21,213 nucleotides of DNA from an archaeon (GTDB lineage Archaea; Hydrothermarchaeota; Hydrothermarchaeia; JALTZZ01): assembly GCA_027051165.1 (NCBI GenBank), contig JALTZZ010000034.1, positions 1 to 21,213 on the forward strand, read 5' to 3'. The position numbers and the translations under genes are program-made. A model generated the notes under the pieces. It saw only the letters and a program-made list of their open reading frames with translations. It was not told the DNA's origin and did no database searches. Each line of letters opens with the position of its first letter. Position 1 is the first letter of the stretch. Of the stretch, positions 804 to 17,150 are shown one piece after another.

Positions 804-1766
804 TTAATAAAGAAAAGACTTATATTTACCTAATAGTTCAAAAAACCCTATTACATATTTTTCATGTGTATAACTACTCCTATAAAACTTCAAATTTACC
901 TTAAATAACAGGTTTCTTAAATTACTTATATTCTTCCATTTTTTACCATTTTTCTTTATCATTATATCTTTTAACCTGAGTTTAGCATGATATCTTCTAT
1001 TGACATCATTAAGATCGTCATTAAGAATGGTTTTATTTATACCAATCCTATATGCACTTATATTTAGCGGTACATAAAAATTTTTTGACATTATTCTTCC
1101 TACAATCCTCCATTTCCTTTTTTTCCATAAATTACTTGGATTAAATATTTTTTTAAATAGTACAATAAATCTATCATTCTCTAATAAAAATTTTTTCTCA
1201 AAAGTAAATCTATATATAAAAGCCTCGAGACTTATCGTATATTTTTTCGCTAAAATTTCTAATGTTTCATGTGAAAAATCTTTTTCTAATTCGTTTATAA
1301 TTTCGGATGCGTCGCTTTCTGTTATTAAAAGACATGAAGCAAAATAATCCGCAAAACGTTCTATCATATCAGTTAAATTATCTCCTAAACTTCTCAGGAG
1401 ATTTTTAATATTTTCATCTTTTATCATTATATAATGCCCAATTTCATGTGCACACGTAAAGTTTTTTCGTGGAACTGGATGATAACTGTTGACTACAATA
1501 AAATAACAATTATCTTTCTTTATAAGACCTCCAGCTGATGGTATTACATCTTCTTTTACTTTTAACCCTATTTTTTCAGCAACACGATAGGAAATTAAAT
1601 ATTTTTCAGAAACTTCTATATCATTCCTTAGTTCTTTTGCTTTTTCATCTAATAACTTATATATCTTAGCAATAATTCTCTTTTTATTTGAAGTTTTCAT
1701 TAAAGTTTTTATTCTTATGTTTAGTGATATTAAATTTATGTATCTAATAAACCTTGAAAATATCAT
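804..1766 (-). CDS. ImmA/IrrE-family (COG2856-like) zinc metallopeptidase; real start may be the internal Met near 1700
   Basis: 320-aa ORF with an FTCAHEIGHYIM HExxH zinc-binding motif in a DUF955/ImmA-like context; K/E/I-rich like its neighbours; same strand and 78 nt downstream of 1845..4085. Confidence 0.65.
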   Translation of the reverse strand: MIFSRFIRYINLISLNIRIKTLMKTSNKKRIIAKIYKLLDEKAKELRNDIEVSEKYLISYRVAEKIGLKVKEDVIPSAGGLIKKDNCYFIVVNSYHPVPRKNFTCAHEIGHYIMIKDENIKNLLRSLGDNLTDMIERFADYFASCLLITESDASEIINELEKDFSHETLEILAKKYTISLEAFIYRFTFEKKFLLENDRFIVLFKKIFNPSNLWKKRKWRIVGRIMSKNFYVPLNISAYRIGINKTILNDDLNDVNRRYHAKLRLKDIMIKKNGKKWKNISNLRNLLFKVNLKFYRSSYTHEKYVIGFFELLGKYKSFLY

Positions 1767-1844
1767 GATTATAGTATAATTAAATATAAAAAAAGAAGCT
1801 AAAAGGATTAGATAAACTACTAAATCAAAAAATAAAAAACAGAA

Positions 1845-4085
1845 TTATCTTCTTCTCTCGCCCCTTTTCGCAAGGTAGAATGCTGCTGCTAAAAGTATAA
1901 GCAGCACTGCACCGATAAGCGGAAGCGGCAGCTTCTTCTTCGGCTTTACCGGCGCTTTCTTGACCGCCTCCTTCACGGGCTTCGTTGCGTTTATGAGCTT
2001 CTCAAACTTTTCCACGGTTTTCTGCTCAGCGATTCCCAAGAACTGCTTTAACAGCTCTGGTGAATCGAGCAGTGCATATATCTTTTCCATTTCTCTGTCT
2101 TTCTCGCCCCACTTCTCCAGTTCATTGAGATACTCTTCTATATCTCTCTCAACGCTGAAGTTCCCGGTCATAATCTTGGCGATAATCTCCTCCCTCTTCT
2201 TCTTCAGCTCCGCTTTTCTTCTGTTAAGCTCGTCCAAGAAAATTCTTTTAGCCTTGGTTTCGTTGATTTTTTCCGCAAGCTTCAGAGCCTCTGCATACCT
2301 CTCTTCCTCTATTGCTCTTATTACGTTGGGATAGTAGTGCCTAAGGAAATCTCTGTATCTTTCGTATTCCGTGCTGTTGTGCTTTGTTTTCTCATAGTCT
2401 CTCAGCAGCTCAAGCGCCCTTCTCTCGTTTATTATTTCAGCTTCTTTTATCAGCGTTGAAACGTCAACATCTCTTTCTTCAAGGAAAGCTTCGTAGAGCT
2501 TCTCCTTTACGTATTCGTATAAGAAGTCCTTGTAAATCTGTTTGTATTCTTCGAAAGCCTTAATGAGTTTGACTCTCGGAATTGTGCAGTTTGGCAGTTT
2601 AATTTCATCCGGCAGCTTCTTAATTTCTGTTTCGTCAAAAGTTACAATTGCCTTATAGAGCGCCGTTGCATATCTGCTGTTAGGATTATCTGCAAGGTAG
2701 TTCGTTACAGCGAAGTGTAGTAGAGTTGTGTCTTCAGTTACAGCCCTGCAAAGAAGTCCGCTCGCATCGAGACTCATGTTTTCCCAGTCGTTCTTGAAGT
2801 AGTAGTAGAAAATTCTTGAATATGGTGTTTCATTCGCTGAAACTACTTTTCTGTCGAAGTAGTCCTTCAGGTTGTGAGCTCTGAACTCTATCGTATCCTT
2901 TTTATCGTAGAACAAAATTCTTACCGATACTGTTTGAGGCTTTGAAAAATCTATATCAGCAAGCTTTAAAACTGAACCTTCGAGCCTGAGATTCCCCCTG
3001 TGGTATATTATTCCGTTCTGGAAGTCGAATCCATCTCTTATCTCCTTTATAATCTTGTTCTTAACTGGTATCTCATAGTCAAGCGTATAGTTCACGTAGA
3101 ACCTCGGGAAGTATACGTATCCCTTGAGAAGGCTTATCTTTTCTGCGTATCCGAGCATATACTCTGTGCCTTCACCCTTTCTGTAGAGAACTCGCCTGAA
3201 CTGAAATCCTATCTCCTGCTTGAGGTTCCTCGGTTCGTTGCCTTCAAGCCCCCTTACAAAGTCTGGATCGCTGAAGGCTCTCCTCGCAAATTCGTTTCTA
3301 AAGTAGTTTACGCCCTTATTTATCACGTGAAGCTGTATGCCTCTGAGAACGCCCTCATCAACAGAAACCTCTCTTTCCTCATCTCCTATAATAACCCAAG
3401 TCTTCTCAACGATGACATCGCCCGGCTCAAGCTCATCTTTGAACAGAGCTTCCGGTTTGATTCTGTATTTCACTTTTACTGTATTCTGGTCGCTTGCGTT
3501 GCAGATGAGAGCCATGGTTCTGTTTCCGTATTTAACCTCGTATTCTAAAAGATAAGGACACTCTATCTGCTCAAACCCCTGTCTTTTTCCGAAGTTCGTA
3601 TACAGCGTGCACTTCAGCACCATTTCCTCTTCGAACTCAAGCTCCGGAATATCTGTTTTATAGACTAAAAGATCACCGGCTTTTATCGCATCCTGAACGA
3701 AAGTGTTGTTCCTGAAGCTTAACGCATAGCTGTCAAGGGTTACAAGTTCTGGATATATTTTGTAGTTCCTGTATAATTTCTGGAAGAATCTTTTTCCTTT
3801 TTCATAAGCTGTTTTGTATTTATCCTCTCCAGTGTAGTGGTGCATCACTGCAAGCTCCAGCAGTCTGCCAGCCATTATCGTTGTTTCTATAGCCTTGCTT
3901 TCCGCAATAGCACCGTTCGGTAGCTGGTTTTCAATGGACTTCTCTGCATTGTATTTTGTCGGGAAGTAGATGATTTTTCCGTAGTCCTCCTCCGGCTTAA
4001 TGGTTTGAGGAACCGTTTTTACTACGAGCCCGCTCACGCTGCCCAGCATCACCAACAGCACCGCTAAAACCGCTACCCACCTCAT
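1845..4085 (-). CDS. large secreted, C-terminally membrane-anchored (surface) protein, function unknown
   Basis: 746 aa; N-terminal signal peptide MRWVAVLAVLLVMLGSVSG; C-terminal hydrophobic helix LPLIGAVLLILLAAAFYLA followed by KRGERRR; start ATG 4085 lies about 30 nt after a palindrome plus A/T box on the minus side. Confidence 0.75.
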   Translation of the reverse strand: MRWVAVLAVLLVMLGSVSGLVVKTVPQTIKPEEDYGKIIYFPTKYNAEKSIENQLPNGAIAESKAIETTIMAGRLLELAVMHHYTGEDKYKTAYEKGKRFFQKLYRNYKIYPELVTLDSYALSFRNNTFVQDAIKAGDLLVYKTDIPELEFEEEMVLKCTLYTNFGKRQGFEQIECPYLLEYEVKYGNRTMALICNASDQNTVKVKYRIKPEALFKDELEPGDVIVEKTWVIIGDEEREVSVDEGVLRGIQLHVINKGVNYFRNEFARRAFSDPDFVRGLEGNEPRNLKQEIGFQFRRVLYRKGEGTEYMLGYAEKISLLKGYVYFPRFYVNYTLDYEIPVKNKIIKEIRDGFDFQNGIIYHRGNLRLEGSVLKLADIDFSKPQTVSVRILFYDKKDTIEFRAHNLKDYFDRKVVSANETPYSRIFYYYFKNDWENMSLDASGLLCRAVTEDTTLLHFAVTNYLADNPNSRYATALYKAIVTFDETEIKKLPDEIKLPNCTIPRVKLIKAFEEYKQIYKDFLYEYVKEKLYEAFLEERDVDVSTLIKEAEIINERRALELLRDYEKTKHNSTEYERYRDFLRHYYPNVIRAIEEERYAEALKLAEKINETKAKRIFLDELNRRKAELKKKREEIIAKIMTGNFSVERDIEEYLNELEKWGEKDREMEKIYALLDSPELLKQFLGIAEQKTVEKFEKLINATKPVKEAVKKAPVKPKKKLPLPLIGAVLLILLAAAFYLAKRGERRR

Positions 4086-4116
4086 ACAGAAGCATGATGA
4101 ATTTATAAATCAATTT

Positions 4117-4132: not shown

Positions 4133-4215
4133 TTTCGAAAGGCTTAAGAAGCGAATATCAAAGCTAAGATGTTCTGTGCATGAAATTTGAGGAAGCTGCT
4201 TGAGGAGAGGGTGGT

Positions 4216-5106
4216 ATGTGGGACGACGAAGACACGAAGAAGCATGAAGGGAGAAAGATTTTTGCAGGTATAGCGCTGCTGATACTGCTTGTGTTTTTCT
4301 TCGTTCTTTCGGCGGTATACACGGTTGATCAGACGGAAATGGCGGTTGTAAAGCAGTTTGGAAAGGTTCACAAGATAACTGGTCCGGGCTTGCACTTCAA
4401 GATTCCTGTAATACAGACCGTAGATAAATACTATGTTGGTGTAAGGACTCTTAATTTAGTCGGAAAAGAAGAGGTTGTGGCATTGAGCAATGACGGCTTA
4501 GAGATACACATGGACATAAGCGTTCAGACGGCTATAAAGCCAGAAATGGTTGAAACGATAGCAAAGACTTTCAGAAATCCGCAGTATCTCGAAACTTGGA
4601 AGATTGCAACTGTTAGAGCTACAATAAGAGATGTAATAGCGAAGTATCAGGCTACCGATTTATACGGTGAAAAGAGAAAGAGTGTTGAGGCTGATATAAC
4701 AAGGGAGCTTGAGAAGGAGCTCAGCAAATACTACTACGTTAAGGCTGTTTGGATAAGAAAGATTACTCTGCCGCAAAAGGTTAAAGAAGCCATCGAAGCT
4801 AAAATACAGGCACAGCAGGAAGCTGAGAGAATGAAGTATGTTGTTCAGAGGGAAAAGCTTGAAGCTGAGAGGAAGAAGGTTGAAGCTGAGGGCATAGCTC
4901 AAGCAAATGCAATTATAGGCGAAAGCTTGAGAAAAAACCCAGAATACATACAGTGGTATTTCATGAAGTCCTTAGAGGAGATGGCAAAGAATCCGAACAC
5001 AATTTTCTTGGTTGTCCCGATACCGAGCAGCTACTTCAGCTGGCAGGGCAATCTAACCCAGATGCCACAGATACCTGTGATAATACAGCCTCAACCAAGA
5101 AATTAA
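4216..5106 (+). CDS. SPFH/band-7 (prohibitin/stomatin/HflC-like) membrane protein
   Basis: 296 aa; N-terminal TM helix, then a typical SPFH core (VDQTEMAVVKQFGKV...GPGLHFKIPVIQTV) and a coiled-coil EAxxKxQAQQEAER tail; GGAGGAGAGGGTGG Shine-Dalgarno-like run before the ATG. Confidence 0.85.
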   Translation: MWDDEDTKKHEGRKIFAGIALLILLVFFFVLSAVYTVDQTEMAVVKQFGKVHKITGPGLHFKIPVIQTVDKYYVGVRTLNLVGKEEVVALSNDGLEIHMDISVQTAIKPEMVETIAKTFRNPQYLETWKIATVRATIRDVIAKYQATDLYGEKRKSVEADITRELEKELSKYYYVKAVWIRKITLPQKVKEAIEAKIQAQQEAERMKYVVQREKLEAERKKVEAEGIAQANAIIGESLRKNPEYIQWYFMKSLEEMAKNPNTIFLVVPIPSSYFSWQGNLTQMPQIPVIIQPQPRN

Positions 5107-5134
5107 CTCTTTTTTATTTTTGTGAAGTGATGCT

Positions 5135-5458
5135 ATGTGGGAAGATGTGAAAGGGATAATAGTAAGAGGTGTGAAAGAAGCAGAAGAATTTGCTGAATTT
5201 TGCAAAGAGAATGATCCAAGACTTCTTAAAAGGATTATCATGCAGAAGATTAGAGAAGCTGAGAAGTTGCTTGAAAAATCAGAAGATAAAATACCTGATG
5301 AATTTAAGGATGAGGTATTTGAGTTTATCAGCGGGTTGAAGTTTAAGTATCGGTGGCTCGGAATAGATGAGATCGAATTCTCCGACTACATCTTAATCAG
5401 CAGGTTGATTGAGAAGCTGAAAAAGCTTAAAAACATTTCCTGCAGATACAAAATCTGA
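5135..5458 (+). CDS. hypothetical 107-aa acidic protein
   Basis: ORF directly after the SPFH gene on the same strand; charged K/E-rich composition; stop overlaps the next small ORF (TGATG). Confidence 0.5.
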   Translation: MWEDVKGIIVRGVKEAEEFAEFCKENDPRLLKRIIMQKIREAEKLLEKSEDKIPDEFKDEVFEFISGLKFKYRWLGIDEIEFSDYILISRLIEKLKKLKNISCRYKI

Positions 5459-5616
5459 TGGGAAGAACAGATCTGCATGTGGAATTCGGAAATCTGATAG
5501 CCTCGGCGATAATATCGGTTTTCTTCATAGTATTGGGATTTTACACCGAAAAGTGGATATCCATCTTGGGGACTATTTTTTGCATCTTATTTATCATGAA
5601 AGGATACAAACACTAA
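5458..5616 (+). CDS. candidate 52-aa two-TM small membrane protein (below the 60-aa ORF-track threshold)
   Basis: ATG overlaps the stop of 5135..5458 (TGATG); translation MGRTDLHVEFGNLIASAIISVFFIVLGFYTEKWISILGTIFCILFIMKGYKH has two hydrophobic helices. Confidence 0.35.
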   Translation: MGRTDLHVEFGNLIASAIISVFFIVLGFYTEKWISILGTIFCILFIMKGYKH

Positions 5617-6215
5617 ACCTCAAAGACATAATCTCTCCACCCAAGTCCGTTTCCATGCGTTACCGATACAACTGCAGCGTTCTTTCCTATTTTCACTTCG
5701 ATGATTTTGTATCCCTTCTTTTTTCTTCTGTCCAAAGGAGCAAAATACTCTCCAATCTTTTCTTGAAAAACTTTTTCATCCGAATAATCAAAAAAGCCCT
5801 TATACTCCTTAGGCTCTACCCCCAACTCCTTAAGCAGATAACGGAGATAGTCCTCTAATTCAACCCATGGATAAACTATTACCGCGATCTCCGGAGTCGT
5901 GTAGCTTCTGCACCTGAAGCAGTATGTCTTTCCATCTTTTATTGACAATCTTCCCTTACATTTCGGGCACACCTCTATTCTTTCTTTCACAAGCTCGGTC
6001 TTCACACCTTTGGGATCTTCCTCCATTAGGAAATAATCTCTGTGTTCAGCATCATAAATGATGTAGAACTTTTCCCTGCAATAGTATACATCCTTAATTC
6101 TGCTTTCTTTCAGCAGAACACGCACTTCATCCTCATCTTTGGTTAGAAGCCTCGCCGGAATTCTCCCACCTTTAACAATTCTGCCTCCGATCCAGCTTGC
6201 CACCAAAACAGCCAT
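5613..6215 (-). CDS. zinc-ribbon protein (CPKC...CFRC), function unknown
   Basis: 200 aa; CxxC-x16-CxxC ribbon; GGAGGAG Shine-Dalgarno 6 nt before the ATG on the minus strand. Confidence 0.6.
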   Translation of the reverse strand: MAVLVASWIGGRIVKGGRIPARLLTKDEDEVRVLLKESRIKDVYYCREKFYIIYDAEHRDYFLMEEDPKGVKTELVKERIEVCPKCKGRLSIKDGKTYCFRCRSYTTPEIAVIVYPWVELEDYLRYLLKELGVEPKEYKGFFDYSDEKVFQEKIGEYFAPLDRRKKKGYKIIEVKIGKNAAVVSVTHGNGLGWRDYVFEV

Positions 6216-7736: not shown

Positions 7737-8135
7737 TCACACCTTCACAGCTGTGAGGAACTTTCTTTTATAGTAGTGGACGGTTGAAACCGGGATTCCG
7801 AGCCTTTTTGAAACCTGCTTAACGGTTAAACCCTTTTTGAGAAGCTCAATCACGGGCTTCGGATCTCTCCTTTTAGGTCTTCCCGGCATTTTGCACTCGG
7901 CAACAAGATCAACGCCCACCTTTTCCAAAGCTCTTTTTATCTTGCTCGGAACCGCTTTGTGCAGGCTCGGCGGAATGGAAATCTCTTTTATGTTCGGAGC
8001 CTTGGAAAGAATGTGGACGAGCACCGCGGTTGAAGGTCTTATGCTCAAATGAACCTTCTCGGTTTTTTCATCGAGCTTTTCCTCAATTTCGTGGAAAATT
8101 TCTTCAATGGTTTTAGCCTGCAGCTTCACTTCCAT
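7737..8135 (-). CDS. helix-turn-helix DNA-binding protein (C-terminal HTH), candidate regulator
   Basis: 132 aa; C-terminal GRPKRR...LTVKQVSKRLGIPVSTVHYY HTH resembling resolvase/transposase-N HTH; ATG 8135 sits about 30 nt after the GTTCGAAAATCTTAAGA arm of palindrome 8178. Confidence 0.7.
   Translation of the reverse strand: MEVKLQAKTIEEIFHEIEEKLDEKTEKVHLSIRPSTAVLVHILSKAPNIKEISIPPSLHKAVPSKIKRALEKVGVDLVAECKMPGRPKRRDPKPVIELLKKGLTVKQVSKRLGIPVSTVHYYKRKFLTAVKV
7742..7758. promoter_or_regulatory. palindrome module copy f (CCTTCACAGCTGTGAGG)
   Basis: 5 nt after the stop of minus gene 7737..8135; terminator-like position. Confidence 0.55.
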
Positions 8136-9288: not shown

Positions 9289-9303
9289 CTTCACAGCTGT
9301 GAG
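9289..9303. promoter_or_regulatory. palindrome module copy h
   Basis: CTTCACAGCTGTGAG; minus side GAATTCGATTTTTAAAATTTTATAAAAAT then ATG 9260 (gene D1). Confidence 0.55.
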
Positions 9304-9425
9304 TTCCTAAAAAAGCATCTGCAGCACATTCTGAGAATTTCGTTTACCCTGCAGCTCCACGTGCACTCAATGCAGCAGTTCTTTTCACAGCTCCTGCACC
9401 TTTTCAATCCTGCTTCCTCGCACAT
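9291..9425 (-). CDS. candidate 44-aa cysteine-rich peptide (10 Cys)
   Basis: MCEEAGLKRCRSCEKNCCIECTWSCRVNEILRMCCRCFFRNSQL; same strand, 46 nt after 9472..9786; stop lies inside palindrome 9289; could instead be an artefact of CTGCAGC repeats. Confidence 0.25.
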   Translation of the reverse strand: MCEEAGLKRCRSCEKNCCIECTWSCRVNEILRMCCRCFFRNSQL

Positions 9426-9471
9426 GACTCGTGTGCAAACACTAAAATTAATTTAATTTCTGGAGGAATCT

Positions 9472-9786
9472 TCATTTTTTAACCACCTTTTTCAGCTTTT
9501 CGTAGAATGCTTTCAGCTCCTCATCGGCTACAAACGCTTTCATCCATTTTTCAAGGTGCCGGAGAAGAAGCTCGGGCATGGGCTTCTCCGGAACGTATAA
9601 TCTATCTTTTTCTTCGAATCCACGTTCATAGCTTCTGCACATCCACTTTCCGCAGATTTTCTTCTTGCACGGATCTTCCGGCAGAGGGAACAGCCATCTC
9701 CAGTCGGGAGATTTCAAAACCGGGCATCCGAGCAAAGATTCTTGCTCCCACAGCTTTTCAAACACCTCGCAGGGGATTTTATTCAT
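9472..9786 (-). CDS. 104-aa Cys/Trp-rich protein, unknown; likely co-transcribed with the PAPS-reductase-like gene
   Basis: Start overlaps the 3' end of 9779..10633 by 8 nt; six Cys (CEV, GCP, CKKKICGKWMC). Confidence 0.5.
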   Translation of the reverse strand: MNKIPCEVFEKLWEQESLLGCPVLKSPDWRWLFPLPEDPCKKKICGKWMCRSYERGFEEKDRLYVPEKPMPELLLRHLEKWMKAFVADEELKAFYEKLKKVVKK

Positions 9787-10633
9787 GCGAGCATCCCCTG
9801 CCAGCTATATGAGGTAAAAAGCACTGACAGCTTATTTTTTCAAGCTTTTTAACCCTTTTAACTCCCTCTTTACCTTTTAAATCAGCCTTGCTGAAAATAT
9901 TCATCAGCCTTTCGTAATCCTCGGGAAAGAACCTCTTTATTTTCATGATCTTTTCCTCTGAGAGATCGTGGAGCATGCACATGCATTCCCCGCTCATAGA
10001 AATAGCTTTATACACGGGATTAACAGGCAGACTGGCAGCTTTTATGTATTCTTCAACCTTTTCTCTGTTCCAATCTAATATAGGACAGTAGCTGTATTCT
10101 TTGTGCCTTCCCTTATACACTTTGTTCGTCTTCAGATACTCGCCGTAAATCTCAAATCTCCTTGAGCTCTCGTGAATTCTTATCCCGTTCACCGACAGCT
10201 TCACACCGTTTATTGATTTTAAGAACTTGGACAGAGGCTGATACTTGAGAACACGGAAGCACCACCTGCATCTGCCGTGTAAAGGCACACCCCACCTTTT
10301 TAGTCCATCTTCAAAGCTCATCTCGGGCTTTAAAACCTTGAAGTCGAAGGGATACCTCTTAACGAACTCCCTGATAAACTGCTTGCATGCGGAGATTCCT
10401 ATTCCCGTATCAATGTGAATTATAGTTGCTTTTACGCTCAGCTTGGCGGTTTTGTAAAGCCTGTAGAAAACATCTAAAGCAACCATGCTGTCCTTACCGC
10501 CGCTGAAGAGAATGAAGATGTTTTTGGGCCTGTAAAGCTCAACAACCTTCTTTAAATTCTCAGCTTCCTCTAAAAGTCCAAATCTCCTTAATAAATCCGC
10601 TTCTTTAAAAAACTTCTGCAGAGTCATCTGCAT
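9779..10633 (-). CDS. PAPS reductase / PP-loop ATP pyrophosphatase family protein (CysH/DndC-like fold)
   Basis: 284 aa; FSGGKDS PP-loop; DWNREKVEEYIKAASLPVNPVYKA..SMSGECMCM aligns with the CysH-family DWxxxDVWxYIxxxxLPYNPLY..GYxSIGC motif; C-terminal Cys cluster; promoter is palindrome 10676 plus CTTTAAAAG box about 30 nt before ATG 10633. Confidence 0.85.
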   Translation of the reverse strand: MQMTLQKFFKEADLLRRFGLLEEAENLKKVVELYRPKNIFILFSGGKDSMVALDVFYRLYKTAKLSVKATIIHIDTGIGISACKQFIREFVKRYPFDFKVLKPEMSFEDGLKRWGVPLHGRCRWCFRVLKYQPLSKFLKSINGVKLSVNGIRIHESSRRFEIYGEYLKTNKVYKGRHKEYSYCPILDWNREKVEEYIKAASLPVNPVYKAISMSGECMCMLHDLSEEKIMKIKRFFPEDYERLMNIFSKADLKGKEGVKRVKKLEKISCQCFLPHIAGRGCSHE

Positions 10634-10675
10634 GTTAATCCCCTCTGAGACGGCTTTCTTTTAAAGCTTTCTGAA

Positions 10676-10690
10676 CCTCACAGCTGTGAG
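10676..10690. promoter_or_regulatory. palindrome module copy i
   Basis: Minus side GTTCAGAAAGCTTTAAAAGAAAGC then ATG 10633 (PAPS-reductase-like gene). Confidence 0.6.
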
Positions 10691-10753
10691 AAACCGAGTG
10701 CTCGGCATAAAGCATCAGAATGATTTTTTTCAGAGAAATAATGTATTCCGTGC

Positions 10754-11323
10754 TCACTTCTCCCCGCATATGAACTTCACTATGCTTTCAAGCTTCTTCT
10801 TCAGCTTTGAATCAGCTTCGAAGCTCTCTATGTCGTTTCTTATAAGCCAAGAATCGAGCTTCTTTATGTAGGGAATCCACTCTATAAGCTGCAAACCCAG
10901 CTCCTTGGCTACGCTCAAAGCCTCTTTTTCGCTGGCAGATAGATTTACCACGACACCTAAAACCCCGCATCCGCAGTTATAAGCAGTTTCGACGAGCTCC
11001 TTGGCTACGAGAACGTTGTGCCTGTGCGGCAGAGTTATCAAAACCAGATCCATCGGATTTTCCTTCAAATACAGGAAGCTCTGCTTCTCCCTCGGGAAGA
11101 CAACGATTCCCAATCCAGCTCCTTTCTTAGCCTTGTTGTATAGTTTTGTCAGCTTTCCGAGCTCGTCGAAGTCGTAAACTCTGATATCAAATTCTTTTGC
11201 TATTAAGCTTGCGATAGTGCACTTGCCTGAGTTGTTCTCTCCTATAAATCCCACCGGCTTGCTCAGAGAATAAACCTTCTCCTCCTTTTTCAAAAAGTCC
11301 TTAAGCATGTTGTCGAGGTTCAT
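10754..11323 (-). CDS. small P-loop NTPase (Walker A GENNSGKCT, Walker-B-like DLVLITL)
   Basis: 189 aa; leaderless-type start about 22 nt after CTTATAAGC box next to perfect palindrome 11351..11370. Confidence 0.65.
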   Translation of the reverse strand: MNLDNMLKDFLKKEEKVYSLSKPVGFIGENNSGKCTIASLIAKEFDIRVYDFDELGKLTKLYNKAKKGAGLGIVVFPREKQSFLYLKENPMDLVLITLPHRHNVLVAKELVETAYNCGCGVLGVVVNLSASEKEALSVAKELGLQLIEWIPYIKKLDSWLIRNDIESFEADSKLKKKLESIVKFICGEK

Positions 11324-11350
11324 GCCATACTTGTGAGCTTATAAGCTTGA

Positions 11351-11370
11351 TTCCTCACAGCTGTGAGGAA
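11351..11370. promoter_or_regulatory. palindrome module copy j: TTCCTCACAGCTGTGAGGAA (20-nt perfect), bidirectional promoter
   Basis: Plus side TTGATTTTTTAAG then ATG 11398; minus side CAAGCTTATAAGCTC then ATG 11323. Confidence 0.65.
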
Positions 11371-11397
11371 TTGATTTTTTAAGTTTAAGTTATCCTT

Positions 11398-12096
11398 ATG
11401 ATAGAGATAGAAGCCGCCGCCGACGATGAAAAAATTCGCGGGAGAGTTCATCTGCACATAGACAGAAGAGTGAAAAGCAGAGGGATCTATGTTAGACTTT
11501 TCGGAGCAGAAGAAGTTAGAATTGTCGATCGTGTTGATAAAAAACTTAGAAAAGCAAAAAACATAATAATAGATGAAATAAGGAAGATTAAAGATAAAGG
11601 AGAGCTCTTCGGCAGCTATACTTTAAGCTTTGAATTCAAACTTCCGGAGAATCGTCTGCCAACATACAGAGGGGTTTACGTGAATATATTTTACAAAGTG
11701 GCTACATGGATTGATATACCGTTCAGATTCGATATTAAAGCAGAAAAAGAAATTGAAATTTTGCCTAAGTGCAGCATGCCGTATAAATTACGGAAATCCT
11801 TCTTAAATAAGGCTGTATTTAGGAGAGGGGAAATTATAAGAGGGAGAATTGAAGGTAGAAGCAGGGTAAAGCTCGTTTGTGTTGAGAGTGCGGACACGAA
11901 GCATGTCAGCGCTAAAATAGCAGTTTACGAAAAAGAGGTTGACGTGCTTTCCGGAGGTTTTTCGATAAAGATACCGAATGATGCTCCCTTCAGCTATGCC
12001 GGGAAGCTTTCCTCTGTTGCGTGGTATCTTGTTGTCGGTGGTGAGCACATACCGATAGCCGTTCTTCCTCACAGCTGTGAGGAATTGATTTTTTAA
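11398..12096 (+). CDS. hypothetical 232-aa protein (beta-rich, arrestin/Spo0M-like impression only)
   Basis: ORF begins 28 nt after GATTTTTTAAG box of palindrome 11351; ends inside palindrome 12065 (PHSCEE encoded by the repeat). Confidence 0.55.
   Translation: MIEIEAAADDEKIRGRVHLHIDRRVKSRGIYVRLFGAEEVRIVDRVDKKLRKAKNIIIDEIRKIKDKGELFGSYTLSFEFKLPENRLPTYRGVYVNIFYKVATWIDIPFRFDIKAEKEIEILPKCSMPYKLRKSFLNKAVFRRGEIIRGRIEGRSRVKLVCVESADTKHVSAKIAVYEKEVDVLSGGFSIKIPNDAPFSYAGKLSSVAWYLVVGGEHIPIAVLPHSCEELIF
12065..12084. promoter_or_regulatory. palindrome module copy k (20-nt perfect)
   Basis: Overlaps the last codons of 11398..12096; plus side TTGATTTTTTAAGCTCTTTATTTGTTGGTGGTGCGGA then ATG 12122. Confidence 0.65.
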
Positions 12097-12121: not shown

Positions 12122-12439
12122 ATGGCGGGGGTTATTATTTTTGTAGATAGGATTGCGCTTTTAGTAAGTTTTGTTAAAAACGAGATAAAAAGCATCAGCA
12201 AAAACGAAACGGAAGCCGTTTTCAACGTTCTAAGCGTGGTTCATGAACTGCTGAGAGATGTAGAAGTGAAGGACGATGAACTGAAGAAAAAGCTGAGAGC
12301 TGTAAAAGATATAACGAGGGCTGAGATAGAGAGCATAGAGAAAAATCCGTTCTCAAAGGCGCTGGCGACAATTTACATTACAAAGGAGCTTTTGGAAGAT
12401 TTCCACAGCGAGGCAGAGCTTCTCGTAAAGCAGAGGTGA
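12122..12439 (+). CDS. hypothetical 105-aa protein, first gene of a coupled operon
   Basis: Starts in the conserved module tail GGTGGTGCGGAATGGCGGGG; stop overlaps the next start (GTGA). Confidence 0.5.
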   Translation: MAGVIIFVDRIALLVSFVKNEIKSISKNETEAVFNVLSVVHELLRDVEVKDDELKKKLRAVKDITRAEIESIEKNPFSKALATIYITKELLEDFHSEAELLVKQR

Positions 12440-13359
12440 GTTTCGTGGGTAGAACCTGCTACTACATTTTTTACGTGAAAAACAAGGTAAAAGCTTATCT
12501 TGTGAAGAGCGATTTCCTTGAAATGACGAGAAACAACGTATGGTTCTGCGAGACTCCAGATATCGGCATTAGAGAGCGGGAAAAAGTTGAAGAATACCTT
12601 CCAGAAATCTTTGAGCCTCCGAAGAGGTTCAAAGAGCTGGAGCTGATATACAACAACGGAACCACCAGCAAAATTTCTTATAAAGAATATAAAAAGTATG
12701 AAAGAAGCTACAATGTTCTGGACTACATAAGAAGACACGTAAAGAAGGTCAGAGTAATAAAAAGGCTTCCGGGGTATGAAGTTTACGGCTGGTGCAAGAC
12801 TGCAGAGTGCGATTTCGATGTTCTGTATCTGCTCAACGTTGCAAGGAAAATTTCGGAGAAATACGGAATCAGAGCAAGATTCGAGGATGAGGGCGAAATT
12901 TACTACGGTGATATCGTAAAAGGTGAGCTGAAGGGTATGGAAATAAGCGATGAGATTATAGCAGAGCTGAAAGAAAAGCACTTCAAAATACTTGAGGCAA
13001 GGATCCCGCTGAACATAGCAAAGTTCTTCAAGCAGTATCCGGACTGGATAGACTTCAGTATAAAAACTTTGACGGAGTTCCTTGCAACCGACGACGATTC
13101 TGTTGATATACTGTTCGGAAGGAAGAAAGGAAAGCTCAATGTTCCAGCTGGACTCTCCGCCGTAAAATTCAGCGAGAAAATGTATCCATTTGCAGCGCTG
13201 ATTCACGAAGAAACCTATGAAATGCTTGAGATCCTCAAGGGATCTCTCGACATGACGGAGGATGAGATACTTAAGCTTGCGTTTAGAGCGGTTGCAACGA
13301 AGTATAGTTACATGTTTGACAAATATATCAAAGAAGTTCCGGCGAGGTATCTGATATGA
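12436..13359 (+). CDS. hypothetical 307-aa protein
   Basis: GTG start overlapping the upstream stop; K/E-rich; ATGA overlap with the next gene; antisense ORF 12373..13401 judged spurious. Confidence 0.6.
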   Translation: MSFVGRTCYYIFYVKNKVKAYLVKSDFLEMTRNNVWFCETPDIGIREREKVEEYLPEIFEPPKRFKELELIYNNGTTSKISYKEYKKYERSYNVLDYIRRHVKKVRVIKRLPGYEVYGWCKTAECDFDVLYLLNVARKISEKYGIRARFEDEGEIYYGDIVKGELKGMEISDEIIAELKEKHFKILEARIPLNIAKFFKQYPDWIDFSIKTLTEFLATDDDSVDILFGRKKGKLNVPAGLSAVKFSEKMYPFAALIHEETYEMLEILKGSLDMTEDEILKLAFRAVATKYSYMFDKYIKEVPARYLI

Positions 13360-14015
13360 TAAAGTATAGATGTCTCGCAGTAACCAAAAATCCGGTAGCA
13401 CTTGAACATAAAATTAAAGCAGAAATTGAAAAGTATTCTTGGTATAGATTTAGACCAAGAATTTACAGACTTCCGTTCAGAATCGCTATAACCAAGAAAA
13501 AGCCGGTGAGATTCGCATTTGCCTATGCCTATACATCCTGGCAAAAATTTTACTGCTCATCGAGCGAGAATATACCAAACAGCTATAAATTCATTGAAGT
13601 TTATCACAAATCGAAGAAGTATTTCACAGTGGTCGTAAAAGGAGAGGGTTGCAATTTCAGTGCTTATCTCTGCGTCATAATTCTCAACAGACTCAGAGAG
13701 CTTTGGAAAGAAGCGTATATAATAATCAAAAGAAATGATGACTACAAATACGGAGAGCTGAAAGATGATATGGTTGTGGGCGAGGACGGAATTAAATATC
13801 TCATTGTTGAGGAGCTGTTCTTCGAGGAATACGAAAAGCATCTGAAAGAAATAGAAGTTCCAGAGCTTTTAGCCGAACGTCTGGATTTGATAGAAACAGG
13901 CATAGAGAGGCTTAAAACCAAGCTTATATTTCCGCCCGTGAGGAGAATAATAAGAATACGAGAAGCTCGCAGAGAAATACGGATCCTTCGAAAATGCAGT
14001 ATATCATATATTTAG
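13356..14015 (+). CDS. hypothetical 219-aa protein
   Basis: ATGA-coupled to 12436..13359; basic C-terminal tail RRIIRIREARREIRILRK. Confidence 0.55.
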   Translation: MIKYRCLAVTKNPVALEHKIKAEIEKYSWYRFRPRIYRLPFRIAITKKKPVRFAFAYAYTSWQKFYCSSSENIPNSYKFIEVYHKSKKYFTVVVKGEGCNFSAYLCVIILNRLRELWKEAYIIIKRNDDYKYGELKDDMVVGEDGIKYLIVEELFFEEYEKHLKEIEVPELLAERLDLIETGIERLKTKLIFPPVRRIIRIREARREIRILRKCSISYI

Positions 14016-14132
14016 AGCCGTTGCCGGCGATGAATACAGGCTCAGCGTCCCGGCGAGATATTTAATTTAGTTTTTTTGTTTATTTTTTAACGGAAAGTTT
14101 TATTATCGTGAAGGGTTAAATAGTATAACATT

Positions 14133-15143
14133 ATGATAACTGTGCTTGAATTGGAGAATTTTAGGGGAGTAAAAAAAGGCAGGATAGAATTAGCTCCGCT
14201 TACAATTCTCCTCGGTGGAAACAACTCCGGAAAAACAACAATCCTTGAAGCACTTTTCTTAGCTCCAAATCCCTTCCGTGGAGTTCCTTATTCTTTAAAA
14301 CCTTATAATGCAGCAGTAGCAGTCCTTCGTTATCTTCATGAAACTTTGGACAGCAAAGGTTATGCCTTCTTACTTTACAATTATATTTTAAACTCTGCTA
14401 AAATATCTTGCAGAGCTGATAATATGCATTACAGTCTCGTTTTTTCGAAGGAACAACCTTCACAAGACCTCATTTCAGTAATTTTAACCAAGCAAGATTC
14501 TTCTTGGACTGTAGGAAGATTATCAACTGTACATGATAATATCACTCCAATAAGTTCAGAATTGTATATGAAGAATACTCTTCTTATTTCCTCAAAACTC
14601 AGAGATTATGGATACCGATATATTGAGGAGAACTGGGCAGCCATTATAAACCTCGGAATATGCAGAAAAGTTGCAAAGGAAACTTCTGAGCTTGTTTCTG
14701 AAAATTATATAGATATAACCATGGAGCCTTTCCTTGGAGGACAACTTGCTATCTATGCATTTTTGGAGGACGGAAGGAGGATAAGGCTGGGAGATCTCGG
14801 TGAGGGTGTTCAGAACTACATACTTGCGAGAGTACTCTACGAAGTGGCAAAGCCAGAGACCCTTCTGTGGGATGACGTTGAGGCGCACTTTAATCCAAGG
14901 ATGCTCTTAAGAATTGCGGAATGGTTCTCCGAACTTATAGAGAAAAATAAACAGGTTATAGTTTCCACGCACAGCTTAGAAGCGGCTAAAATAATTGCTG
15001 GCATGGCTGAAGAAAAGGCAAGAATATACCTCACATCTTTAAAAGACGGTGAGCTTAAAGCTAAAAGCCTCACTCTTAAAGAAGTTGAAGAGCTACAGGA
15101 AGCCGGGATTGATGTAAGAGTTGCGGAGCCGATGCTGCTATGA
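14133..15143 (+). CDS. ABC-type / AAA_21-OLD-like ATPase (defence-associated ATPase family)
   Basis: 336 aa; N-terminal LENFRG...LTILLGGNNSGKTTILEAL Walker A; C-terminal LLWDDVEAHFNP (Walker B-like DD) and QVIVSTHSLE (H-loop); 117-nt AT-rich promoter region upstream; ATGA-coupled to the next gene. Confidence 0.8.
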   Translation: MITVLELENFRGVKKGRIELAPLTILLGGNNSGKTTILEALFLAPNPFRGVPYSLKPYNAAVAVLRYLHETLDSKGYAFLLYNYILNSAKISCRADNMHYSLVFSKEQPSQDLISVILTKQDSSWTVGRLSTVHDNITPISSELYMKNTLLISSKLRDYGYRYIEENWAAIINLGICRKVAKETSELVSENYIDITMEPFLGGQLAIYAFLEDGRRIRLGDLGEGVQNYILARVLYEVAKPETLLWDDVEAHFNPRMLLRIAEWFSELIEKNKQVIVSTHSLEAAKIIAGMAEEKARIYLTSLKDGELKAKSLTLKEVEELQEAGIDVRVAEPMLL

Positions 15144-15829
15144 GGCTGTATCCGCTTGATCAAACAAGTGGAACAGCAGGAAATCTACGTGAAATATCAA
15201 AAGAATTGAAAATAAAAATATTAACATTTTATGTTAGAGAAAGAATTACATCCCTAATAGTTTTAGCGGATGGTCGGCACGACGATATTGCAGTAGCCTT
15301 AATTGCACATCATCAAAACGGTAGATATACTGTCGGTATAGTTAAGCCAAAAGGTAAAACAAGATATGCGTGTATAGAAATTCTACCTTCGTATGTCAAA
15401 ATAGGTAATATTAGGAAAATAGCGTTCTTTATAGATCAAGAAGATGAGAGTTTGGAAAGTGTCTATCGAACAGCCGAGAACAAGCTAAGAAAGACTGTAA
15501 ATGACTTTGAGGTCTTAGATGAGCGGGAAAGAGTAAAAATATACAGATGCAACTACGGTGGAAAGGAATTCGATTTTATATTTGTTGTCAACGGTCTTAA
15601 CGATATTCCAGCAAGAAAACACTGTATAGAAGATCATTTTATCCATGTTGCTATGAATATAAACCCTTCCATAAACATTAGCAGTGAAATAGACCCTAAA
15701 GTATTTTGGAAACGGCTTAATGAAGATATTAAGAAAGATGTTCTGAAGCAGCTGAAGGGAAACAGAAGGCTTTTGAGGGATAATTTTCCCCAGCAGGTAT
15801 ACGGATGCGAACTGCTTGAAAAAGATTAA
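15140..15829 (+). CDS. 229-aa partner of the ABC-like ATPase; acidic LIVLADGRHDD motif (possible divergent Toprim/nuclease-like, unverified)
   Basis: ATGA overlap with the ATPase stop; conserved-looking acidic patches SLIVLADGRHDDIAV and EFDFIFVVNGLND; ends 12 nt before palindrome 15841. Confidence 0.6.
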   Translation: MRLYPLDQTSGTAGNLREISKELKIKILTFYVRERITSLIVLADGRHDDIAVALIAHHQNGRYTVGIVKPKGKTRYACIEILPSYVKIGNIRKIAFFIDQEDESLESVYRTAENKLRKTVNDFEVLDERERVKIYRCNYGGKEFDFIFVVNGLNDIPARKHCIEDHFIHVAMNINPSINISSEIDPKVFWKRLNEDIKKDVLKQLKGNRRLLRDNFPQQVYGCELLEKD

Positions 15830-15840: not shown

Positions 15841-15856
15841 CCTCACAGCTGTGAGG
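15841..15856. promoter_or_regulatory. palindrome module copy l (16-nt perfect), bidirectional terminator position
   Basis: Lies between convergent gene ends 15829 (+) and 15888 (-). Confidence 0.55.
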
Positions 15857-16592: not shown

Positions 16593-17150
16593 TCAGCGGG
16601 GTCTGTAGTATTCTCTGTCTTTTCTTATCAATCGATTCTCAAACAACTCTGCAGTAGCTCTATACACTTCCTGCCTGCTCATGTCTAAATAGTTCATTAT
16701 CTGCGAAAAAGTCGCTCCGTTATTCTGTTTAATAAATTCATAAACCCTTCTTGCAGATTCGCTGAGATTTTTAGTTTTTTCTTCATCGGATTTCTGATAT
16801 TCTTTTCTTTCTTCTCTTCTTCTGATTTCGCTCTCATACTCTCGAAAGGATTGATTTTTTAACTCTTCGAGAATCTGCAGAATCAGATCTACTTTCCTTT
16901 CTATTTTATCGAGCTTTTCCAAGATTTCCGTGCTCTGACCTGCCGTGCTTATAGAGATTTTCTGCAGCATCTGCTTTGCAACATAGCTTCTCGCTCTCAT
17001 TATTTTTTCCTGTAGATCTGGGGCATTCTGATAGTCGTCCCTGTATTCCGCAAGCTCCTGCAGAAATTTTATTTTTTCCTCCTCACTCTTACCTTCCAAA
17101 GCCTTTTCTATAAACTTCTTAGCATCCTCTATAAACAGCTCGTCCATCAT
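16593..17150 (-). CDS. winged-helix transcriptional regulator with N-terminal coiled coil
   Basis: 185 aa; C-terminal ARRVYEFIKQNNGATFSQIMNYLDMSRQEVYRATAELFENRLIRK wHTH; bracketed by palindromes 16573 (3' end) and 17179 (promoter). Confidence 0.7.
   Translation of the reverse strand: MMDELFIEDAKKFIEKALEGKSEEEKIKFLQELAEYRDDYQNAPDLQEKIMRARSYVAKQMLQKISISTAGQSTEILEKLDKIERKVDLILQILEELKNQSFREYESEIRRREERKEYQKSDEEKTKNLSESARRVYEFIKQNNGATFSQIMNYLDMSRQEVYRATAELFENRLIRKDREYYRPR

Follow-up and report, generated by a model that had tools for sequence, protein, structure and literature searches.

In the 21,213-nt stretch of archaeal DNA analysed here (the window), two overlapping genes, gene A and gene B, code for a compact ABC ATPase and a predicted Toprim-like protein. 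We read the pair as most probably a split, OLD/PARIS-like nuclease module of archaea under the control of its ATPase; it lies outside all named systems, and its role is probably defence or addiction. Both genes start with ATG and are read in different frames as two separate ORFs, and the ATGA coupling described in the initial annotation was seen in the sequence as a 4-base overlap. In the spacer preceding gene A, some 35-45 nt ahead of the ATG, lies a TATA-like stretch of the TTTTATTA type, a candidate for an own promoter of the pair; the palindrome CCTCACAGCTGTGAGG that recurs in the element (see below) was not found within this spacer. The pair and the main features of gene A are as follows:

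14016..14132, + strand: AT-rich 117-nt spacer 5' of gene A, read from the sequence
14133..15143, + strand: gene A, compact 336-aa ABC ATPase of the AAA_15/AAA_21 (OLD-like) group
14214..14240, + strand: Walker A (P-loop) GGNNSGKTT, aa 28-36; G28, N30, N31 and K34 invariant in the family
14415..14582, + strand: hypervariable β-rich insert, aa ~95-150, delimited from column frequencies and the model
14796..14813, + strand: ABC signature-like LGEGVQ, aa 222-227; G223, G225 and Q227 invariant
14859..14897, + strand: Walker B region TLLWDDVEAHFNP, aa 243-255; D247, H252, N254 and P255 invariant
14964..14975, + strand: H-loop STHS, aa 278-281; H280 and S281 invariant
15105..15119, + strand: C-terminal tail motif GIDVR, aa 325-329; G325, D327 and R329 invariant
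15140..15143, + strand: ATGA shared by the gene A stop and the gene B start (translational coupling)
15140..15829, + strand: gene B, 229-aa Toprim-like (PH0156/DUF3226-like, OLD-nuclease-like) protein of an unannotated family

The compact ATPase encoded by gene A

Gene A matched the Pfam models AAA_15 (8.4e-20, 72.1 bits; cut-off 32.1) and AAA_21 (1.2e-17, 65.4 bits; cut-off 27), and, among PADLOC models, the ATPases AriA, NsnB, AbiLi, PDC-M38A, mad3, Old, GajA and PtuA. The best PADLOC matches were AriA models, but these are as long as the generic AAA_15/AAA_21 Pfam models, so the match is unspecific. The AbiLi model was matched end to end (1-328 of 336 on 1-339 of 340, E 1.3e-15), and mad3 and PDC-M38A were matched at 8e-14 and 1.7e-14, respectively. 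The motifs noted initially (LENFRG, Walker A, hhhhDD and STHS) were all found where they had been placed, LENFRG at aa 7-12 and the Walker B stretch LLWDDVEAH at aa 244-252. In the predicted fold, the heads of SMC, Rad50, PtuA, RecF, GajA and AriA were better matches than transporter subunits. By its profile matches and motifs gene A is a bona fide AAA_15/AAA_21 ABC ATPase, and by its model the head is of the SMC/Rad50/RecF type and not a transporter nucleotide-binding domain. This agreed with the earlier assignment to the ATPase type of OLD, PARIS, Septu and Gabija, both Pfam models being above their cut-offs and the head fold fitting; the remark that the protein is unusually compact was equally borne out, its 336 aa falling within a family range of 330-390 aa.

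Relatives of gene A numbered 435 cluster representatives at E<=1e-10, and the invariance of its motifs was judged over 48 homologues. The residue after the Walker B aspartate is Asp (D248), as in the 'DD' of RecF, and not Glu; the template of this region in AAA_15/AAA_21 proteins is 'DEPE..LHP'. The predicted model lacks a coiled coil. The site occupied by the coiled coil in SMC and Rad50, and by insertion sequences in AriA, is taken up in gene A by a hypervariable insert with a mean top-residue frequency of 0.29-0.42, versus 0.65-0.89 in the core; the model places strands there at 98-106, 113-120, 123-131 and 137-139, and long helices are absent from aa 88-152. This insert is a candidate sensing surface. 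The GIDVR tail is a candidate partner-docking element, and GIDLR is found at the C-terminus of the Methanocaldococcus jannaschii plasmid ATPase that precedes a DUF3226 gene (see below).

The gene B protein and its relation to Toprim families

Gene B was compared with the profiles of Pfam, PADLOC, NCBIfam and PHROGs and gave no credible match, in line with the initial view that the partner has no clear family; the top Pfam match, Rh5 coiled-coil at E 0.014, was treated as noise. Relatives were nonetheless plentiful, with 182 cluster representatives at E<=1e-3, and an alignment of 103 family members was used for the conservation counts of gene B. The protein had been called acidic, which did not hold: its pI is 8.9, with 33 D+E versus 38 K+R, and only the conserved motifs are acidic. 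Those motifs, LADGRHDD (aa 42-49) and VNGLND (aa 150-155), are present as described and coincide with the best-conserved alignment columns. The conserved motifs of gene B are as follows:

15254..15286, + strand: motif I, LIVLADGRHDD, aa 39-49; a β-strand followed by [N/D/E]44-G45-x-x-[D/E]48-[D/N]49
15434..15442, + strand: motif II, D99-Q100-E101, directly after strand 93-99; D99 in 103/103, Q100 in 94/103, position 101 E86/D12
15590..15637, + strand: motifs III-IV, NGLND...KHCIEDH, aa 151-166, from column counts and the secondary structure of the model
15698..15709, + strand: motif V, K187-x-x-W190, in the C-terminal helical region; K187 in 102/103, W190 in 101/103
15785..15796, + strand: motif VI, FPQQ, aa 216-219; F216 in 93/103, Q218 in 98/103, position 219 H52/Q50

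In Burkholderia pseudomallei OLD, the two-metal site and its lysine include E400...E404, T506/E508 and K562 (PMC6755086), and the motifs of gene B agree with these in order and spacing; the residue equivalences that follow were set by motif order and not by superposition. Motif I, which in the model comprises strand 38-42 and helix 46-58, is proposed as the counterpart of the Toprim glutamate motif 'hhhhEGxxD/E' (E400...E404 of OLD); its columns hold N50/D46/E7 at position 44, G45 in all 103 members and D91/E12 at position 48. Motif II may correspond to the Toprim DxD, and a non-significant hhalign alignment put it on the DQE of 'RDIDQE' in the M. jannaschii DUF3226 protein. Motifs III-IV (G152 in 100, H161 in 98, E164 in 102, D165 in 97 and H166 in 102 of the 103 members) are proposed as a second metal site comparable to T506/E508; in the model N151 and G152 close the last core strand, and H161, E164, D165 and H166 open the first C-terminal helix. 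K187 is proposed as the counterpart of K562. In Toprim proteins an invariant Glu follows β1 and DxD follows β3; at the candidate positions for these, the window protein itself carries D44, D48, D99 and E101. The suggestion of a divergent Toprim or other metal-dependent nuclease site gained ordered, invariant acidic, His and Lys residues in the partner, and gene B is predicted to be a metal-dependent nuclease effector.

The predicted models of both proteins were very confident, and that of gene B showed a Toprim fold with an attached helical domain. Comparison of this model with the PDB by Foldseek gave no match at E<=0.001, and no Pfam Toprim model was among the matches listed for gene B or its 103 relatives. 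When the profile of the 103 relatives was compared with PDB sequences, only de novo designed Rossmann/P-loop proteins were retrieved, and these were set aside as reflecting a generic α/β composition. The family was also compared with DUF3226: PH0156 is a DUF3226 protein in which the canonical Toprim EGxxD and DxD are seen in the alignment, and it has been reported as the best HHpred match of a lactococcal DUF4435 AriB (PMC11381338). Gene B and DUF3226 (PH0156) share the same fold and the same neighbourhood, with a compact ATPase directly upstream. Gene B did not match the DUF3226 profile (PF11536), one of the 103 relatives did so at E 5.7e-4, and hhalign of the gene B family against the M. jannaschii DUF3226 protein, alone or with PH0156, was not significant (probability <1%). 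At the level of sequence, then, the link of gene B to any Toprim family is not significant. Literature searches on DUF3226, PF11536 and PDC-M38 found no papers.

Linkage, distribution and genomic setting of the pair

A homologous ATPase of 335–373 aa was found directly upstream of the partner in every locus with enough upstream sequence, the two homologues were always separate ORFs, and the 4-nt overlap was present at 32 of 34 upstream-ATPase junctions (33 locus ORF rows plus the window). This pairing is far beyond chance, and the order A then B with its 4-nt overlap is kept across distant archaea. The pair is common in uncultivated ANME-1/Methanophagales and other archaea, in a survey of genome loci that was seeded with a 6-sequence alignment and is biased towards ANME-1 because that alignment was the query. 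The loci included PIN/MazE toxin–antitoxin clusters, a methylase/SNF2/NOV_C (methylase/helicase) island, housekeeping neighbourhoods and, in the window, a mobile element, so that the pair stands alone as a unit in unrelated neighbourhoods; a conserved third gene was ruled out, synteny being only lineage-specific. Decayed copies or pseudogenes were found at some loci (L010-12, L025, L030 and L031). In ANME-1 many copies lie among housekeeping genes at conserved positions, the flanking genes being 91-94% identical versus 72% for gene A and 60% for gene B, and gene B alleles cluster differently from gene A alleles and from the flanks. Variable contexts, decay, allele incongruence and the hypervariable insert are features typical of conflict systems; the first three, together with carriage on a mobile element, are indirect indicators of antiviral defence.

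No relatives of gene B were found in IMG/VR, phage records or plasmid records. A distant plasmid-borne analogue of the pair, consisting of an ATPase and a DUF3226 gene, was found on the M. jannaschii plasmid pDSM2661_1, where an ATPase reading frame of 334 codons, 27% identical to gene A over 98% of the latter's length, precedes a DUF3226 gene (WP_010890059.1).

The window copy is carried by a mosaic archaeal element that resembles a plasmid or virus; a sibling of this element encodes ParA, TFIIB and an Orc/MCM-like ATPase. The palindrome CCTCACAGCTGTGAGG occurs in 17 copies in the window (<=2 mismatches) versus 0 expected. Two of these copies bracket a five-ORF block, 12122..15829, that includes the gene pair, in agreement with the earlier description of an island bounded by palindrome modules:

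12067..12082, unstranded: upstream copy of CCTCACAGCTGTGAGG, inside a 66-nt repeated promoter-like module 5' of ORF 12122..12439
15841..15856, unstranded: perfect 16-nt palindrome CCTCACAGCTGTGAGG, 12 nt after the gene B stop codon

The 66-nt module constitutes family D1, with copies at 11351, 12065 and 17177. The three ORFs in 12122..14015 were ruled out as parts of the system, being absent from all other loci. The description of the surroundings as an island of nucleases had to be abandoned: the neighbours are mostly ORFans whose profile matches are only weak or non-defence, and none in the window gave a significant match to a defence model.

Comparison with known systems and proposed function

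The pair had been said not to map cleanly onto a named system, and this was upheld by searches with AriB, AbiLii, mad4 and Toprim models, which gave no matches in the window protein or its 103 relatives; weak signals among the relatives were six to PDC-M38B models (E 1.3e-3 to 8e-3) and three to GajA models. PARIS resembles the pair in having an AAA_15/AAA_21 ABC ATPase gene with a second gene next to it for a Toprim-fold nuclease of some 230-300 aa, and in being often on mobile elements; its ATPase senses and scaffolds, and the Toprim protein that it releases serves as effector (PMC11464382). Release in PARIS depends on a trigger, and the effector cleaves tRNA. However, AriA is a protein of ~55 kDa (PMC11464382) whose helical insertions form a coiled-coil bundle and which assembles as a hexamer, whereas gene A has 336 aa, a β-rich insert and no coiled coil. 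AriB is a DUF4435 (PF14491) protein, and gene B and its 103 relatives match neither DUF4435 nor AriB models, even at E<=1. PARIS has been placed in 'class 4' of the OLD family, which is reported as restricted to bacteria (PMC12796447), whereas the gene A/gene B family is archaeal. The pairs with DUF3226 (PH0156 of Pyrococcus horikoshii, PDB 2P62, and pDSM2661_1) differ in that their partners have no significant similarity to gene B: DUF3226 has a canonical EGxxD at the extreme N-terminus together with RDxD, and the gene B family shows one more strand and helix at the N-terminus, with [N/D/E]-G-x-x-D and D-Q-E as its motifs.

Members of OLD classes 1-2 (P2 Old, the Thermus and Burkholderia OLD proteins and GajA) are single polypeptides of 500-700 aa, the ATPase and Toprim domains being joined throughout classes 1-3, and the pair is two genes; the proposed Glu position is N, D or E in the gene B family, and the window pair lacks a UvrD-type helicase partner. 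AbiL, MADS3-4 (mad3/mad4, DUF4276), RloA/RloB and PDC-M38 are, like the pair studied here, combinations of an ABC ATPase with a small Toprim-superfamily partner (PMC11464382, PMC12065111). Gene A matches AbiLi, mad3 and PDC-M38A, but gene B matches no AbiLii, mad4, RloB or PDC-M38B model, and methylation-system or type I R-M genes are absent beside the window pair. Cran1, the OLD-family ATPase-nickase of Sulfolobales, is likewise an archaeal OLD-type ATPase-nuclease, and shows that proteins of this type can serve outside defence, in roles linked to chromatin (PMC12796447). It differs in being a fused, essential protein with strictly vertical inheritance, whereas the two genes studied here are separate and patchily distributed, with some copies decayed and some carried by mobile elements.

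The explanation that we favour, and consider reasonably likely, is that a coil-less SMC/Rad50/RecF-type ATPase and a Toprim-like nuclease form a self-contained, translationally coupled module, a split version of the 'ATPase + Toprim' design of OLD. By analogy with PARIS (AriA/AriB), Septu and Gabija, gene A would dimerise or oligomerise on ATP and keep gene B inactive, and its insert (aa ~95-150) would sense a signal from an invading virus or plasmid. Gene B would then be released or activated and cut nucleic acid (tRNA or DNA) by two-metal catalysis, with D44/D48, D99/E101, H161/E164/D165/H166 and K187 as the putative catalytic residues. Cleavage would stop the invader or the infected cell, and in the window the module may protect its element and its host against competitors. 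We infer this defence role from architecture and gene-context behaviour. More tentatively, and with slightly less than even confidence, the family may be an unnamed, archaea-specific class of split OLD-like immunity, composed of a coil-less ATPase, a β-insert sensor and a new Toprim-derived nuclease with a remodelled site ([N/D]-G-x-x-D, D-Q-E, H-x-x-E-D-H and K), which ANME-1 methanotrophs would keep at fixed chromosomal loci with recombining sensor/effector alleles and which ANME-type mobile elements would carry as a cassette.

Several of the same observations could be read as addiction, with gene B as a nuclease toxin and gene A as its ATP-dependent antidote in a toxin-antitoxin-like unit that would mainly stabilise the carrier element or genomic islet and not detect viruses. 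The mosaic extrachromosomal-type element that carries the window copy (with the ParA, TFIIB and Orc/MCM-like ATPase of its sibling), the copies within PIN/MazE clusters, the plasmid-borne M. jannaschii analogue and the tight 4-nt coupling of an autonomous two-gene unit, typical of toxin-antitoxin pairs, are consistent with it. However, a classical type II antitoxin is small and labile, and the upstream protein here, an ABC ATPase of 336 aa that bears a hypervariable insert, fits a sensor better; many copies are chromosomal, in stable positions between housekeeping genes, and the comparable PARIS effector is only modestly toxic alone (PMC11464382). We regard addiction as unlikely. An equally low probability is given to a cellular DNA or chromatin system, either a housekeeping ATPase-nickase like Cran1 or an analogue of RecF (a coil-less SMC-like ATPase) with RecR (a Toprim protein). 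The conserved positions of ANME-1 copies among housekeeping genes would also fit such a role, and the patchy, sometimes decayed or mobile occurrence of the pair sets it apart from Cran1.

Gene B might also be a non-catalytic Toprim-like adaptor, as RecR is, the pair binding or clamping nucleic acid in an ATP-dependent manner without cleavage; the Asn found in 50 of 103 members at the position mapped to the catalytic Toprim glutamate, and the absence of Toprim profile matches, speak for this. Yet at least nine polar, charged or glycine positions (G45, D/E48, D99, D/E101, H161, E164, D165, H166 and K187) are at least 94% conserved, in an order that agrees with the OLD two-metal site, and conservation of this kind is hard to explain without catalysis; we consider the adaptor quite improbable. 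Finally, gene A could be an ordinary ABC transporter nucleotide-binding subunit next to an unrelated metabolic or accessory protein. Its C-terminal part does match models of transporter ATPases weakly (E 1e-4 to 1e-2, well short of the cut-offs), and at one distant locus a branched-chain amino-acid transporter operon happens to precede the pair. Against this, ABC_tran was matched at E 0.24, the fold is closer to SMC/Rad50 heads and no permease is encoded in the window, so that the transporter ATPase match with a nearby permease, named initially as the observation that would speak against a defence pair, was not found; as far as sequence analysis can decide, this explanation is refuted, and we give it a negligible probability.

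Few antiviral designs in bacteria are as widespread as the ATPase-plus-Toprim systems, which include OLD, Gabija, PARIS, retron effectors and AbiL. Cran1 is the only characterised archaeal OLD protein, it is not a defence protein, and the split form has been reported from bacteria only. If the split-module reading is right, archaea too would have a split form, made up of a minimal ATPase and of a nuclease family for which Pfam, PADLOC, NCBIfam and PHROGs lack a profile, and its sisters would be the equally unstudied pairs of ATPase and DUF3226 (PH0156) in Methanocaldococcus and Pyrococcus. Immunity has hardly been explored in ANME-1/Methanophagales and the other archaea that carry the pair. 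The small size of both proteins and their very confident models make the pair an attractive system for studying how an ABC ATPase controls a Toprim nuclease; and if its role were not defence, it would be the second case in which archaea have put an OLD-like machine to cellular use.

A compact ATPase and its linked partner gene

The two genes of the pair, with the ATGA overlap between them, were found as described in the initial annotation:
14133..15143, +, gene A, ATPase of 336 aa
15140..15829, +, gene B, partner of 229 aa

The ATPase motifs reported for gene A were also located (LENFRG, aa 7-12; GGNNSGKTT, 28-36; LLWDDVEAH, 244-252; STHS, 278-281), together with an additional signature-like LGEGVQ (aa 222-227). 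In Pfam, gene A matched AAA_15 (8.4e-20), AAA_21 (1.2e-17) and, weakly, DUF2813; in PADLOC, it matched AriA, NsnB, HEC-02A, AbiLi, PDC-M38A, mad3, Old, GajA and PtuA. The AbiLi model covered the protein end to end (1.3e-15), and the top match, to AriA, was considered unspecific since both AriA models are as long as the generic Pfam models. Comparison of the predicted model with known structures (higher figures being closer) gave the SMC head (21.0), Rad50 (20.3), PtuA (19.1; 22% identity), Retron Eco7 ATPase (18.5), RecF (18.1), GajA (16.1), AriA (15.7) and Thermus OLD (13.8). Transporter subunits reached at most 15.2 over about 200 aligned residues, and the E value against the Pfam ABC_tran profile was 0.24; identity as an ABC transporter subunit was refuted, with next to no probability left to it. 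The model has no coiled coil: a β-rich insert at aa ~88-152 replaces the coiled-coil segment of SMC/Rad50. Residues ~95-150 are by far the least conserved (top-residue frequency 0.29-0.42 vs 0.65-0.89 elsewhere), and an invariant G-x-D-x-R motif lies at the extreme C-terminus. The family comprises 435 clusters at E<=1e-10. The best 120 are 47-63% identical to gene A, with lengths of 329-388 aa, and among them the host is archaeal wherever the source names an organism (Methanophagales/ANME-1, Syntrophoarchaeum, Methanoperedens, Bathyarchaeota, Odinarchaeota, Thaumarchaeota and Thermoproteota).

Loci carrying homologues were collected by looking up identical proteins and by scanning GTDB genomes. 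Linkage of the two genes, like the identity of the components, was observed directly: a gene A homologue lies upstream of the partner in every examined locus with upstream sequence, intact upstream ATPases measure 335-373 aa, and 32 of the 34 tabulated junctions show a 4-nt overlap. No third gene was kept with the pair among the examined loci. In ANME-1, several loci occupy one or other of two syntenic housekeeping positions (archaeosortase/DUF1786/GatD, and downstream of CofD), and other loci lie in PIN/MazE clusters (L007-L012), in an island with a methylase, an SNF2 helicase and NOV_C in Methanoperedens, or in other housekeeping neighbourhoods (L036, L037). Decayed copies, in which the ATPase gene is split or the partner gene is in fragments, were found in L010-L012 (3386-4448 / 1331-2393), L025, L030 and L031; some of these are within PIN/MazE clusters.

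In a Thaumarchaeote the pair adjoins a histone-deacetylase-family gene directly downstream (L006, 3647-4396), and such a gene lies three genes downstream of the pair in ANME-1 (L001, 5048-6094; L003, 5969-7015). Cran1, an OLD protein of archaea that acts in the cell cycle, reportedly copurifies with a histone-deacetylase homologue; the parallel is possibly a coincidence. A further locus with ANME-1 synteny (archaeosortase, pair, DUF1786, GatD), on contig DATKXZ010000035.1 labelled Desulfobacteria bacterium, has genes 67-82% identical to those of ANME-1 loci; the contig is probably archaeal, and its assignment to a bacterial MAG a binning error.

Both genes of the pair have diverged faster than the flanking ones at the syntenic ANME-1 locus: pairwise identities average 74.5% (A) and 66.1% (B), as against 79.6% (DUF1786) and 82.9% (GatD). 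Between two ANME-1 loci, L001 and L003, flanks are 91-94% identical, A 72% and B 60%, and between L001 and L021 flanks are 79-82% identical, A 70% and B 85%. Since allele groupings of ATPase, partner and flanking genes are incongruent, this small sample of sequences suggests that recombination may exchange alleles inside the two-gene locus, even between A and B.

Fold and proposed active site of gene B

The partner had been described as acidic; gene B is in fact basic overall (pI 8.9, 33 acidic vs 38 basic residues). No credible match was obtained in Pfam, PADLOC, NCBIfam or PHROGs. An exhaustive HMMER search retrieved 182 cluster representatives (130 at E<=1e-10), those listed being ~205-250 aa long, apparent fragments aside.

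Near-invariant positions of gene B, counted in an alignment of 103 of the 182 representatives
44: N50, D46, E7
45: G103
48: D91, E12
99: D103
100: Q94
101: E86, D12
151: N84
152: G100
161: H98
164: E102
165: D97
166: H102
187: K102
190: W101
218: Q98

In the AlphaFold2 model, of very high confidence (pLDDT 97, pTM 0.92), a strand and a helix at the N-terminus precede a β-α-β-α-β-α-β core, which is followed by a β-meander and, at the C-terminus, by a helical bundle. The model's comparison figures were 12.0 for PH0156 of Pyrococcus horikoshii (2P62; 172 residues aligned), a DUF3226 protein, 8.7 for the class 2 OLD C-terminal Toprim and helical region (6NK8), 7.6 for Thermus OLD (6P74), 7.0 for GajA (8U7I) and 6.0 for Retron Eco2 (9I2F). 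PH0156, annotated 'TOPRIM domain of OLD nucleases', is also the best HHpred match of a lactococcal DUF4435 AriB (PMC11381338). The sequence link to DUF3226 is not significant: one of the 103 relatives matches (5.7e-4), with weak matches of six to PDC-M38B and three to GajA, and hhalign of the family profile against DUF3226 gave a probability <1%, with DQE placed on DQE and K187 on the PKD lysine in this sub-threshold alignment.

B. pseudomallei OLD binds metal A through E400, D455 and D457, and metal B through E404, T506 and E508, on the helical domain's first helix; K562, from the same domain, is directed at the scissile phosphate (PMC6755086). Gene B presents a strand followed by [N/D/E]44-G45-x-x-[D/E]48, a strand followed by D99-x-E101, H161/E164/D165/H166 where the first post-core helix begins, and, within the helical part, K187. 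In the window protein, the first two of these motifs supply D44, D48, D99 and E101. From the matching order and spacing, we hypothesize that these motifs correspond to the OLD two-metal site and lysine. In an alternative register, the N-terminal strand would be Toprim β1 and G45 the 'glycine after β2'.

The carrier element

The window is a complete metagenomic contig (21,213 bp, ~40% G+C) of mostly ORFans, without tRNA genes. The initial annotation placed the pair in an island of nucleases; in profile searches of the window the neighbouring ORFs were not demonstrably nucleases:
804..1766, -, IrrE/Peptidase_M78 protein
1845..4085, -, 746-aa ORFan, no family match
4216..5106, +, SPFH/Band_7 protein
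7737..8135, -, small winged-helix/HTH protein
9779..10633, -, PAPS-reductase-family protein (Pfam 1.4e-23; PHROG 'phosphoadenosine phosphosulfate reductase' 2.6e-34)
10754..11323, -, 189-aa P-loop-like ORFan adjoining the former
11398..12096, +, 232-aa protein with significant Arrestin_N (3.8e-13) and Vps26 (5.1e-8) matches
16593..17150, -, small winged-helix/HTH protein

A palindrome module immediately precedes the Arrestin_N/Vps26 gene, itself carried by an archaeal mobile element. The palindrome modules noticed earlier proved real: the perfect palindrome CCTCACAGCTGTGAGG, with variants of one or two mismatches also counted, has 17 copies against 0 expected, each of 16 nt:
4117, 6430, 6879, 7433, 7524, 7743, 8177, 9289, 10676, 11353, 12067, 15841, 16575, 17179, 19959, 20043, 21155

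Copies at 12067 and 15841 flank a five-ORF block (12122..15829) that includes the pair. Most of those checked (11-19.5 kb) are intergenic, 30-55 nt upstream of start codons, and lie inside repeated modules of ~50-70 nt with a TATA-like TTTTTTAAGCTC stretch. The palindrome probably serves a regulator encoded by the element as its operator, marks a junction at which cassettes recombine, or does both. Both winged-helix/HTH proteins, whose weak matches are to TrmB/MarR/IclR-type, DUF1699 and HTH_23 profiles, could be the regulators binding it. No copy occurs in the AT-rich spacer upstream of gene A (14016-14132), where a promoter belonging to the pair itself may lie.

The metagenome of the window also contains a sibling element (L034; ENA ERZ23495399 scaffold_2362) with genes for ParA, a TFIIB homologue and an Orc/MCM-like (Orc/MCM-WHD) ATPase. 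It shares window blocks 1821-5642 (88.6% identity) and 9296-11378 (92%), one of them inverted. The common core consists of the 746-aa ORFan and the SPFH gene; the PAPS-reductase-family gene and its adjoining ORFan are also kept. Homology ends at palindrome-bearing modules, which indicates a mosaic archaeal element with cassette shuffling. In addition, the 19.9 kb of L034 that were read (~6 kb being unread) contain no called AAA_15/21 gene. The pair thus appears to be a cassette carried as cargo by an archaeal element, plasmid- or virus-like and of mosaic make-up.

Relationship to known systems and proposed function

Among sequenced plasmids, the best tblastn match of gene A was in M. jannaschii pDSM2661_1 (27% identity, 98% of query; NC_001732.1 8158-9890). 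This ATPase reading frame has 334 sense codons, a C-terminal GIDLRG and a single in-frame stop, because of which it is annotated as two CDS; the stop may mean that the gene is a pseudogene, or else stem from sequencing or recoding. Two nt after it lies a DUF3226 gene, whose product matches PF11536 (1.1e-18) and PH0156 (1.4e-33); canonical Toprim motifs occur in both aligned DUF3226 proteins (IVEGKTD / LLEGITD; RDVDEG / RDIDQE). Genes for NurA, an ATP-binding protein, an AbrB/MazE protein and MCM lie close by. This layout indicated that archaea possess a 'compact ATPase + DUF3226' module, as yet unstudied, to which the window pair is a divergent sister, although at the sequence level the window pair falls outside DUF3226.

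As initially suggested, the pair does not fit any named system cleanly. It differs from PARIS in having neither DUF4435 nor a coiled-coil AriA, and belongs to neither AbiL nor MADS3-4. It also lies outside the fused OLD classes, yet by analogy would work like a split OLD-family system. Among partner models, only that of the PADLOC candidate PDC-M38 gave any matches, and these were weak.

The best-supported reading, which we hold with moderate confidence, is by analogy an ATPase-controlled Toprim nuclease module that would act like PARIS, Septu or Gabija. Following the PARIS mechanism (PMC11464382), in which AriB is a two-metal tRNase (PMC12409363), we infer that A and B would form a complex: gene A would bind ATP, oligomerise and restrain gene B, its variable insert would sense the invader, and gene B, then released or activated, would cleave RNA or DNA. 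Asn at position 44 in half of the aligned sequences is a caveat for catalysis via that position, and the reading of gene B as a non-catalytic adaptor seems to us improbable. Given the carrier, an addiction module of mobile elements was also considered, and we judge it rather unlikely; a small likelihood is likewise assigned to a cellular DNA/chromatin role like that of Cran1 (PMC12796447), or a RecF/RecR-like one.

For the nuclease module, the ATPase-plus-nuclease design principle is already well known. What is new is the combination of an archaeal lineage with a minimal ATPase and with a separate Toprim-like family for which the searched libraries have no profile. The pair thus represents a sizeable, unannotated archaeal family, prominent in ANME-1 and suited to structural work.
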